From assembly GCA_963719515.1 (NCBI GenBank), contig CAVRCJ010000010.1, positions 480,001 through 544,000 on the forward strand: a stretch of DNA of 64,000 nucleotides, given 5' to 3'. The notes under the pieces are model-generated. The model did not search any database. It had not been told where the DNA came from and saw only the letters and a program-made list of their open reading frames with translations. Shown here piece after piece: positions 40,268-46,917 of this stretch (its first letter is position 1; each line of letters begins with the position of its first letter). Source of the stretch: an uncultured cyanobacterium. Lineage in GTDB: Bacteria > Cyanobacteriota > Cyanobacteriia > CAKZMO01. Made by a program: the position numbers and the translations under genes.

Positions 40268-40678
40268 TCAATCAGTCGGTGCATCTTGGCGGTGGATGTA
40301 TTGTTTAAGCATTTCGATTGGGGCTCCGCCAGCGCTAGCGACATAGTAAGCGTTGGACCAAAACGCTTTATGTCCCCCGTAGTGTTCTTTGTACTGCTGG
40401 GGAAATTCTTTTTTCATGGTGCGGCTGGTTGCGGCTTTAAGGCTGCCAACGAGCGCAGAGATTGAGTTGCGTGGATGGAAGTCAACAAGTAGGTGGATGT
40501 GGTCCGCTTCCCCTGAGAACTCCAGCACCCTACACCCCATCTTCACGCAGACCTGAGAAATCATTTCCTCAATCCTAGCAAGCATTTCAGAGTTGATGGC
40601 TTTGCGCCTGTAGTGCGTTACAAATACTAGGTGCAGGTGCACGCTAAAAACGCTGTGACTTCCTTTTCTTGTTGGCAT
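40268..40678 (-). CDS. tnpA: IS200-family Y1 transposase TnpA
   Basis: HLVFVTHYRR, DHIH (HUH motif), FWSNAYY and catalytic-helix QYI; start MPTRKG. Confidence 0.93.
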   Translation of the reverse strand: MPTRKGSHSVFSVHLHLVFVTHYRRKAINSEMLARIEEMISQVCVKMGCRVLEFSGEADHIHLLVDFHPRNSISALVGSLKAATSRTMKKEFPQQYKEHYGGHKAFWSNAYYVASAGGAPIEMLKQYIHRQDAPTD

Positions 40679-40707
40679 TTGGGCTAGGTGTAGGCTATTA
40701 TGGGCAC

Positions 40708-41612
40708 ATGGTAACAACTCGCCGCGTCACTTTCAAGCTGTATCCGTCCGCCACTAAGGCGGCGAAGCTGCATGATGCGCGGAAGTTGCACCAGTATCTG
40801 TACAATGCCGCACTAGCAGATCGCCGCGATATGTATAAGCGGTGGGGCGTCTCGGTGGACTACTTTGCTCAGCAAAACTGTTTGCCAGCATTTAAGAGAG
40901 AGTGGCCTGAGTACAAAGGGCTAGCCAGTCACGCCTTGCAAGCGACTCTAAAGCGGGTTGACCTAGCATTTCAGGGCTTTTTCAATGGCCTGCGGGGTTA
41001 CCCCAAGTTCAAGGCATTCCGCTACTACAGAGGTTGGACATATCCTTGCAAGTCAGGATGGAAAGCCCATACCGATGGTACAAATGGCTACTTGGAGCTG
41101 AGAGATTTGGGGTTGCGCATTCAGATGCGCGTTGGCTTCACCAGGTAACCAGCAGCATAGTACGCGATAACAGCCTAGTTGCTGGCGAACAACTCAACGT
41201 CAAGGGCATGACCCGCAAGGCCCAGAAGGGTAAGCGGAAAAAGCAAAAGGCCGGTCTCAACCGCTCTATCTTGTCGGTAGGGTTTGCCGAGATTGGCAAG
41301 CTGCTATCCTACAAAGAGGCTGAGGCCGGTGGATTCTATGTCGAGTCACCTACCCGGCAGCTTAAGCCTACTCAGCGGTGTGCTGTGTGCTGACAGACGA
41401 CGCCCAAGACGATGGCTGAGCGCACTCACGTATGCCAGCACTGCGGTCATGTTGAGGACCGCGATACCAATGCTGCCCAGGTCAACCTGATCTGGGCCAA
41501 GGGGCAGGAACTGTCCTTAAGCCGTCGATCCACTAGCTCCACTGATTGCCGAAGCATGAAGCGCCTAGCGGAAATGAAACGCGCGAAACGTCTAGCTCAG
41601 CCTTGCGGCTAG
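40708..41612 (+). pseudogene. tnpB: tnpB pseudogene (internal deletion and nonsense mutation)
   Basis: Relative to element C, about 346 bp including RuvC-I is missing at 41131/41132, causing a frameshift; TGG>TGA at 41391. Confidence 0.9.
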
Positions 41613-45787: not shown

Positions 45788-46917
45788 ATGATGAAAATCA
45801 AGCACTTTATCAACCTCCATAAGGGCACAACAGGCTTGTTTGTGTTTGCCCTGATGGTGCTTTACGGCAATTTCACAACCGCAGCTTGGATCTACCTCGC
45901 CCTCCACGGCACCTATGGTTTACTGTGGCTCATCAAAGATCGGCTCTACCCCGACAAAAGCTGGGAGCAGAGCATTTCCCTGATCAAGGGCATTGTGCTA
46001 TTTGGGGTGCTCGGCCTGTACTGGGCTGCGCCCGTTATTTTAGCTAGTTCGTGAAAGCCCCGCGCTGTATGCGCAGCATCAGCGTCGGGATGTAAGCGAG
46101 CGAGTCGAGGTGCGCCCTTGACTGGATGCCGAAGGCGGCAATTAAGGGCAGCGCCGAGGCGAGCAAAGGGTACAATTGAACCAAGCTCAAACTATTTCAT
46201 GGCGGCGGCCTGCTATCGTGACACAAACGTACAGCCCTTGGCTGGTGAACAGTGCAGACGGTAGAAAACGTAGCTGGAAATTGAATACTCGTCACTGTCT
46301 GGGGTTGGTCATTGCCTGGACATTAAACAAATCGCCTGTCGATGGGATCTAATCGGGGTTGCACGGCTTGCTGCGTAACTAGACAGGACCAGATGAAGCA
46401 GGATACCTTCTTGCGCGGCATCCATTAAATTGTGGTGCGTGAGCCAAGAAGCCCGCGCTCTATCTAAAAGATGAGCGTCGGGAGTATGTCACTGACGCAG
46501 AGGGTCCAACCGTCCTCCGCCCTAATTGCCGTCGCCGTCTCCCTAAACCTCTTGGGCATTTTCCTGCACTACGCAAGCGATGCTCAAAAGTATTTCACCC
46601 TCAAGTACCAGAAGGGGTTGATCACTGAGGGCCTGTTTGCCCGCTGCCGCAACACCAACTATCTCGGCGAGATTCTGATCTACGCCTCTTTCGCGATGCT
46701 GGCGATGCACTGGCTGCCCTTTGCCATCTTGGCTGGGTTCTTTGCGCTGGTATTCCTTCCCAACATGCTTAAGAAAGACAAGTCTCTGTCTCGCTACCCA
46801 GAGTTTGCGGCCTATCAGCGTCGCTCGGGGTTGCTGTTCCCCAAGCTATGGGGGGTTCCGGCGGACCCAGCCGGTTCTGTGCCTAAGGCCTCTGAAGAGA
46901 CAGTCGCACCGGGCTAG
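45788..46917 (+). pseudogene. DUF1295/steroid-reductase/ICMT-like membrane protein interrupted by an insertion
   Basis: The 5' half (INLHKG...YWAAPVIL) and the 3' half (SDAQKY, RNTNYLGE) fuse in frame when 46044-46492 is removed. Confidence 0.85.
46044..46492 (+). mobile_element. Non-autonomous ORF-less IS200/IS605-type element E (449 bp)
   Basis: Related hairpins CCCGCGCT..AGCGTCGGG at both ends; follows TTAG, ends in TCAC, no target-site duplication. Confidence 0.85.

Follow-up and report, generated by a model that had tools for sequence, protein, structure and literature searches.

Genomic context and architecture of the element

The window, which is the whole 64,000-nt stretch analysed, contains a DUF1295-family gene that is split by a mobile element. 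The 5' part of the gene (45788..46043, forward strand) aligns to the intact orthologues L169-L172, and the 3' part (46493..46917, forward strand) matches these orthologues as well as PF06966 (E 9.4e-8). Intact orthologues occur in relatives and measure 222-232 aa, with matches in 5 of 16 other genomes. In the alignment to L171, the N-terminal piece stops at residue 90 and the C-terminal piece begins at residue 92. Since the two pieces abut on this orthologue with a single junction codon between them, the insertion was scarless. The inserted 449 bp (46044-46492) form a protein-free IS200/IS605 derivative of the homogeneous PATE class, oriented as its DUF1295 host gene. Six-frame translation of the element yields no protein in any frame, in agreement with an earlier note on this DNA, made from the letters alone, which had seen no convincing open reading frame. 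The boundaries and landmarks given in that note are likewise confirmed, namely the TTAG tetramer (46040-46043), the terminal TCAC (46489-46492), the hairpins at both ends, an extra hairpin (46114-46149) and the hexamer TACAAT (46171-46176).

A BLASTN search for further copies, first proposed in the same note, returned 18 full-length copies in the element's own genome, with 98.7-100% identity. TTAG lies directly 5' of 17 of them and CTAG of one, and the TCAC terminus is present in 17 of the 18. The flanking DNA is distinct at each copy and target duplication is absent. These differing flanks, together with the empty site of the orthologue, corroborate the earlier description of junctions without duplication. 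The termini CTAGTT and GTCAC are non-complementary, so the element has no terminal inverted repeats; near-terminal palindromes can fold into a hairpin at its left and right ends. Palindromes, a fixed short target, the lack of a transposase gene and a multicopy state with more than 90% likeness place the element within the definition of a PATE given by Dyall-Smith (2011) and Kapitonov (2016). Rfam returned no match to a group I or II intron family that would point to an IStron, and BLAST searches of plasmid and phage collections gave no matches.

Transposition ends and their candidate resident partners

The anatomy of both ends points to a TnpA-type transposase. On the forward strand, the target tetramer TTAG (46040..46043) would be the TnpA left cleavage site and is also the presumed TAM of TnpB. 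The left end (46044..46092, forward strand) combines the TnpA guide AAGC (46055-46058) with a subterminal hairpin, and its assignment draws on guide and target pairing throughout the genome: TTAG occurs with AAGC 91 times and TTAA with AAGT 15 times, while crossed pairs number 0. The right end (46447..46492, forward strand) comprises the TnpA guide GAAG (46448-46451), a hairpin and the terminal TCAC. Among 153 genome-wide pattern matches to right ends, 114 carry GAAG/TCAC, 26 carry GAAT/TCAA and 13 carry other combinations. Guide sequences of this kind are reported to select cleavage sites in IS608. The genome holds 14 Y1_Tnp matches, one of which lies inside an autonomous tnpA-tnpB element with a TTAG site, a TCAC end and the same hairpin type. 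The ends of the 449-bp element thus appear compatible with a resident Y1 TnpA, which probably mobilises it.

The ends had been described as differing from those of the other elements in the window. This holds within the window, where the other IS605 elements gave no further match, but not elsewhere in the genome, where five tnpB-only elements share the first 63-64 nt at 92-97% identity. Between the left end and the -10-like site lies the extra hairpin (46114..46149, forward strand), an optional module related to hairpins in three other gene-less families of the genome. It is missing from the relative L079 and partially duplicated in L083.

Promoter-like site and predicted guide

The hexamer TACAAT (46171..46176, forward strand) would place a transcription start near 46183. 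It is no more than a -10-like hexamer: a strict sigma-70 scan returned 0 sites. A TAnnnT hexamer lies 26-62 nt 5' of the core of the RNA domain described below in 21 of 21 motif-matched sequences and scores at least 5/7 in 16 of them, counts that carry no shuffle control. Of 13 RNA-library runs listed, 10 contained a small share of matching sequence (0.05-0.15), and the 4 examined consist of contigs of relatives, which are silent on transcription. A transcript that crosses the right end would take its predicted guide from the flank (46493..46512, forward strand), and the sole predicted target of this guide is the empty donor site, that is, the intact host gene. For the guides of the 18 copies, a second target (TTAG plus guide) was found for 0 of 18 elsewhere in the assembly, which is expected if each guide targets its own empty site only.

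A 3' scaffold of the TnpB omegaRNA type

The 3' ~195 nt of the element (46297-46492) display the layout of a TnpB omegaRNA that overlaps the right end. The scaffold proper (46297..46446, forward strand) begins with a 5' hairpin (46297-46321), the loop of which, GUCAU (46308-46312), may form a pseudoknot with 46486-46490. A core helix follows (46334-46339 with 46395-46403), and then a stem-loop ahead of the right end. Across 17 sequences, 92.6% of cells in the scaffold helices are paired. Double changes number 47, compared with 14.8 in shuffled alignments, and 0 of 500 shuffles reach this count. The candidate pseudoknot reaches 82% paired cells with 0 double changes; one position is unpaired in 9 of the 17 sequences including this copy, where 1 of the 5 pairs is U.U. 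Part of this 3' half also matches the 3' end of L040, a tnpB element of another genome, at 76% (E 6.6e-5). The earlier statement that ~300 nt could not be recognised as tnpA or tnpB remnants is hence corrected for the 3' part, and the covariation that the earlier note had thought worth seeking is present in its helices.

Comparison with resident elements gives less likeness. Local alignment of the scaffold with resident tnpB ends scored 47-48, within the shuffled range (maximum 53), and the exact scaffold pattern had 0 matches in the genome contigs searched. Against the TnpB family with the same left end the scaffold is ~64-73% alike, a figure to be read beside the 58-66% that the same lenient alignment gives for distant PATEs. 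One member of that family, C10:892744, encodes a full-length TnpB with its three catalytic motifs intact, behind a TTAG site and a left end shared with the element. A tree of 29 scaffolds is mostly unresolved, and good support is confined to 5 of its 26 inner branches. On one supported branch, the domain-bearing L057, L065, L070 and L225 join a tnpB scaffold to the exclusion of this copy, although long branches weaken the grouping.

Together, the data support a mobile gene-less element with a 3' half that appears structured as an omegaRNA. The earlier idea of a standalone omegaRNA-like gene used in trans gains from its mobility, its lack of proteins, its covarying 3' half and the presence of TnpA and intact TnpB genes in the genome, and loses from the distance to the closest resident TnpB scaffolds and from the U.U pair in the pseudoknot.

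A conserved RNA domain ahead of the scaffold

It had been suggested that the element may carry only a guide-RNA scaffold. This wording suits the 3' half and fails for the element as a whole, because a separate and more conserved RNA domain of ~65 nt stands in front of the scaffold (46201..46264, forward strand). The domain comprises a small hairpin (46201-46210), an outer helix (46213-46217/46260-46264), a bulged-A helix (46219-46224/46252-46256), a nearly invariant 7x7 internal loop formed by AAACGUA (46225-46231) and GUGAACA (46245-46251), and a variable top hairpin (46232-46244), all on the forward strand. In 19 sequences, 95.7% of cells are paired and 54 double changes occur against 15.7 in shuffled alignments, a count that 0 of 500 shuffles reach; slid-register controls pair 24-46% of cells. 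With 22 sequences the double changes rise to 80 against 27. For domain and scaffold alike, these controls leave the relatedness among the sequences in place. Variants outside the training set of the domain model R1 are better evidence, since shuffling does not correct for relatedness. R1 recovered one such subfamily, in which CAC/GUG replaces CAG/CUG in the top helix; its members differ in left-end type, are longer, and reach E 2e-7 to 1e-6 per genome. In L129, also outside the training set, the whole top helix is swapped to GGC/GCC and both loop strands are unchanged.

Conservation follows the same pattern. In 7 homologues that were found by BLAST and missed by the core pattern, conservation reaches 0.94 and 1.0 in the two core strands, whereas the loop and linkers stand at 0.33-0.41 and the scaffold motifs at 0.75-0.88. 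By this measure the 5' domain is evidently the best-conserved part of the element. Folding backs it only modestly: predicted helix probabilities are mostly 0.85-0.97 without a guide (two pairs at 0.2-0.3), they fall to 0.3-0.5 with the guide of this copy, and a 113-nt mid region folds no better than its shuffles (z -0.2). The lengths of the top hairpin spread over all three reading frames (6, 9 and 6 of 21 sequences), and the domain is therefore non-coding. A small-protein reading was ruled out by these frame-breaking length changes and by the inconsistent open reading frames of homologues (16-148 aa).

A role of the domain as single-stranded DNA in peel-and-paste transposition, where it might enhance the reaction or provide a priming signal once the circle has been excised, would fit the movement of IS605 elements as ssDNA of this strand (according to the accessible text of Meers et al. 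2023). On this view the copy numbers could be explained with no part for TnpB. The exchange of G-U and A-U at several base pairs of the domain suits RNA instead, as does its constant position shortly after the -10-like box; moreover, the domain is absent from the tnpA- and tnpB-coding elements examined. We therefore regard a DNA role as highly improbable, and RNA as the form in which the domain would act.

Rfam gave no match to the element at the gathering score or at E values up to 5. The related loci yielded sub-threshold RAGATH-18 and SCARNA16 matches only, on 6 loci. The Rfam comparison envisaged earlier thus found no family on this copy, and on the relative L099 a weak RAGATH-18 match to the core motif (E 1.3, score 21.5, where the gathering score is 44.9). 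A likeness of the domain to hairpin or hatchet ribozymes or to rRNA segments is conceivable, with comparison confined to Rfam. Ribozymes are frequent in mobile elements. The domain is a small rod whose unpaired bases are nearly invariant, it would lie close to the 5' end of the element's RNA, and it could represent a class of self-cleaving ribozyme that has yet to be described. Such a ribozyme would free the guide RNA from longer or read-through transcripts, for which the co-orientation of this copy with its host gene would be favourable. However, none of the Rfam ribozymes matches at gathering or E-value thresholds, the alignments contain no second conserved loop or pseudoknot, and a -10 box already lies just upstream of the domain, all of which renders self-cleavage quite improbable.

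Other partners for the domain strands were also considered. The longest duplex that they could form with tnpB loci measures 13, equal to the shuffled maximum. By eye, the GUGAACA strand could pair with the terminal UGUCAC across one bulge; this pairing displays no covariation and is not counted.

Origin of the domain

The domain may descend from transposase coding sequence. The copy in the window aligns in the sense direction with one of 43 tnpA genes, L243, at the codons for P-K-V-Q-P-S-K-L-V-N (39 of 55 columns). This alignment beats 2499 of 2500 random segments, the exception being possibly a partial element copy, in a test devised after the match had been noticed. When the model R2 was run on 198 kb of transposase loci, it gave two weak matches only (E 0.19 and 0.34), both to that same L243 codon sequence. 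These observations, along with the tnpB-3'-like scaffold, would also fit a plain deletion derivative, in which the interior is decayed and functionless tnpA or tnpB sequence and the ends alone matter.

Several results contradict this account. Across 9 members of the domain family, the top tnpA scores in sense and antisense direction are similar, and a tnpA nucleotide profile does not separate members (-1.8 to 8.6 bits) from random sequence (9.0 at the top). Synonymous sites of tnpA in the matching region vary freely, and TnpA or TnpB was detected by tblastn within ~350 nt of the domain at 0 of 62 domain-bearing places. Neutral decay as the sole account is excluded by the contrast in conservation between core strands and loop or linkers, together with the compensatory helix swaps. 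The claim that the interior has no function is thus largely refuted, and we consider plain deletion very improbable. A descent from tnpA followed by reuse is a separate matter and, as judged from these alignments, may be entertained, though it is doubtful. Whatever its origin, the covarying helices and invariant strands indicate that the domain is now maintained as a structure.

Distribution among gene-less elements

With an E value limit of 0.01, BLAST matched the interior of the element in 18 of 401 genomes, and the long-match homologues inspected, among the matches listed, are gene-less elements with the same layout. Genome contigs from 11 genomes gave 25 matches to the core pattern, and the full motif is present in 24 of these. 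Of the genomes, 10 are labelled cyanobacterial and one is labelled Aeromonas. The element in the latter (L066, JBOFSK010000048.1) has as its neighbour a tnpB that shares 59% identity with the resident family, and its contig is likely mis-binned or a case of transfer. Among metagenome matches, 13 of 17 contain the domain, several being the same contigs repeated; viral contigs gave 0 matches to the core pattern. In the element's own genome, R1 and R2 mark 21 places, of which 18 are the copies themselves and 3 are diverged relatives, and neither model matches any of its 83 tnpB loci. R1 was positive in 8 of 151 genomes of the class, three of them weakly, and R2 in 3 of 57, 5 of 151 and 1 of 23 genomes of three families, five of these being judged chance. 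The weak model matches L132, L226 and L229-L232 were set aside as chance, as the stretch examined at each lacks IS605 ends. The distribution is patchy, and the domain was seen solely in gene-less elements, in several cyanobacterial families and before differing scaffolds and left ends.

This combination is illustrated by L140, L150, L146, L225, L227 and L129, gene-less elements of ~460-630 bp in which variants of the domain precede different scaffolds, mostly with another left-end type. The scaffold is shortened in L227 and lost in L051, which keeps the domain. Such persistence, the conservation of the domain core above that of the scaffold, the U.U pair and the low likeness to resident TnpB scaffolds could indicate that the RNA serves as a decoy or has a regulatory role, with a 5' domain that binds TnpB or a host protein and dampens or redirects the nuclease, and with a partly vestigial scaffold. 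Against this, scaffold helices still covary between lineages; the domain was never found as a fixed single-copy gene in an intact non-transposon context, and near-complete examples lie within IS605 ends. A decoy function is on balance unlikely, and we favour a guide RNA with an accessory domain. By eye, three homologous elements (L073/L084, L058 and L077) adjoin tRNA-like sequences in their flanks.

Proposed mechanism and its implications

Based on anatomy, a resident Y1 TnpA would bind the end hairpins, excise the element without a scar and insert it after TTAG. The -10 box may then start an RNA of ~310 nt to which a guide from the right flank is added. The 3' ~195 nt of this RNA, whose structure is observed, could be loaded by a TnpB encoded elsewhere; the nuclease would cut the donor site once it is empty, and the element would be restored by recombination with a chromosome copy that still carries it. 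More tentatively, the 5' domain might act as a protein-binding helper that stands in for the tnpB mRNA, protecting the naked RNA or giving TnpB access to it. TnpB might afterwards trim the domain like its own mRNA, a step that we propose because TnpB processes 5' extensions (as reported in the portion available of Nety 2023).

The features of the sequence point firmly to a TnpA-compatible and recently spreading gene-less element with two selected RNA-like structures on its top strand. For the entire chain, from mobility through TnpA and a guide RNA for TnpB in trans to the helper domain, the balance tips slightly in favour; spread of the element requires TnpA alone, which counts against the need for a TnpB step. 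A broader reading is conceivable but is more probably wrong than right: the 5' domain may be a portable RNA head, placed before interchangeable scaffolds and ends, that captures TnpB made by other elements, its docking partner being TnpB itself, the ribosome or an RNA-binding protein of the host, or else belongs to a new ribozyme class, and the elements may be long-lived RNA parasites of TnpB and not deletion debris.

The role of standalone omegaRNAs is stated to be unknown in the accessible text of Altae-Tran 2023 (PMC10691335), and the element offers a direct test of it. It spreads actively and has exact boundaries, candidate TnpA and TnpB proteins occur in the same genome, and natural variants map the invariant bases and the helices of the compact domain. 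If the domain aids stability or loading of a trans guide, it would account for the way in which elements without genes compete for TnpB, and it could be useful in the design of guide RNAs for this nuclease. A catalytic domain would represent a new ribozyme class, and if neither applies, the element would still be a clean new PATE family.

Relation to known systems

OmegaRNAs proposed for use in trans have been described in PATEs of Geobacillus stearothermophilus (Meers et al. 10.1101/2023.03.14.532601), where, in the text available, donor restoration is demonstrated for tnpB elements and proposed for PATEs. The present element resembles those PATEs in its lack of a protein gene, its IS605 ends and a right-end omegaRNA proposed for trans use by TnpB, and donor restoration would likewise be expected. 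It differs, as far as the accessible account extends, in the conserved domain ahead of the scaffold, common to cyanobacterial families and to varied scaffolds and left ends. The homogeneous PATEs of Haloquadratum walsbyi (Dyall-Smith 2011, PMC3119063) similarly lack inverted repeats and target duplication, possess near-terminal palindromes, are too short for a transposase and occur in many copies more than 90% alike. That source, in its available portion, treats them as DNA elements, some being deletion products, and describes no RNA function. Standalone omegaRNAs (PMC10691335) are mobilised, trans-acting guide loci without effector or transposase, as is proposed here, and the accessible text mentions no extra 5' domain.

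The reRNA of IS607 TnpB, known as RAGATH-18 (Ren 2024, PMC11061315), has a core motif, CCUGUGGA ... GAUGAAGCAGGAA, which in the part of that source available is common with the weak L099 alignment. Unlike RAGATH-18 (RF03064), the element family scores below gathering with no match on this copy, has IS605-type ends and lacks an adjacent tnpB.

SINEs combine a head or CORE domain with a LINE-derived tail. They provide an analogy only, in that the element may be viewed as a parasite without genes that joins a conserved RNA head to a tail taken from its partner; unlike SINEs, it is bacterial and would move as DNA through TnpA, with no reverse transcription.

Trans-guide PATEs and standalone omegaRNAs are thus already published (Meers 2023; Altae-Tran 2023), and the conserved front domain is what is new. 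Among the literature accessible, no paper on this domain was found, and supplementary motif catalogues or subscription journals may hold it; the available parts of PMC13565253, 10.64898/2026.09.24.754181 and 10.1101/2022.10.12.511977 contain nothing on PATE RNA domains.

Other gene-less families and IS605 elements

Four further gene-less groups occur in the genome. By pattern count, one of them has 53 copies of ~390 bp (G000:C10:106397-106796 and 52 other places; example L100). This family combines a scaffold similar to that of the autonomous tnpA-tnpB elements with a different front half, yet it has the same bulged-A helix (GACAC/GUGC), with a 3-base loop, and relatives occur in 2 genomes of the genus. 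A family at TTTAA sites (G000:C10:325094-324665 and 5 others; L098, L099; also seen in L037) has ~85% of the scaffold in common and another front domain. A further gene-less family with other ends, represented by L101 and L102 (G000:C7:179654-180068 and C4:~97900-98330), has a TCAA-type right end, with the extra hairpin and the -10 region as in the 449-bp element. R1 and R2 gave no match on the front halves of three other gene-less families. A further gene-less IS605-like element of another family, L266:1-470, combines the scaffold type of the 53-copy family with a different front region.

The window contains, at 40270-41612, a divergent tnpA and a frameshifted tnpB (pieces of 159 aa and 119 aa) with ends unrelated to those of the 449-bp element. 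At C10:892744-894108 (L104), the tnpB frame has no internal stop and continues beyond the element into flanking DNA at the right end (455 aa). Short palindromic insertions lie in tnpB or in right-end hairpins at C3:362060-360738, C7:7032, C11:131368 and the right ends of C10:892744 and its relatives, and the insertion in C3:362060 replaces the catalytic-glutamate region of tnpB.
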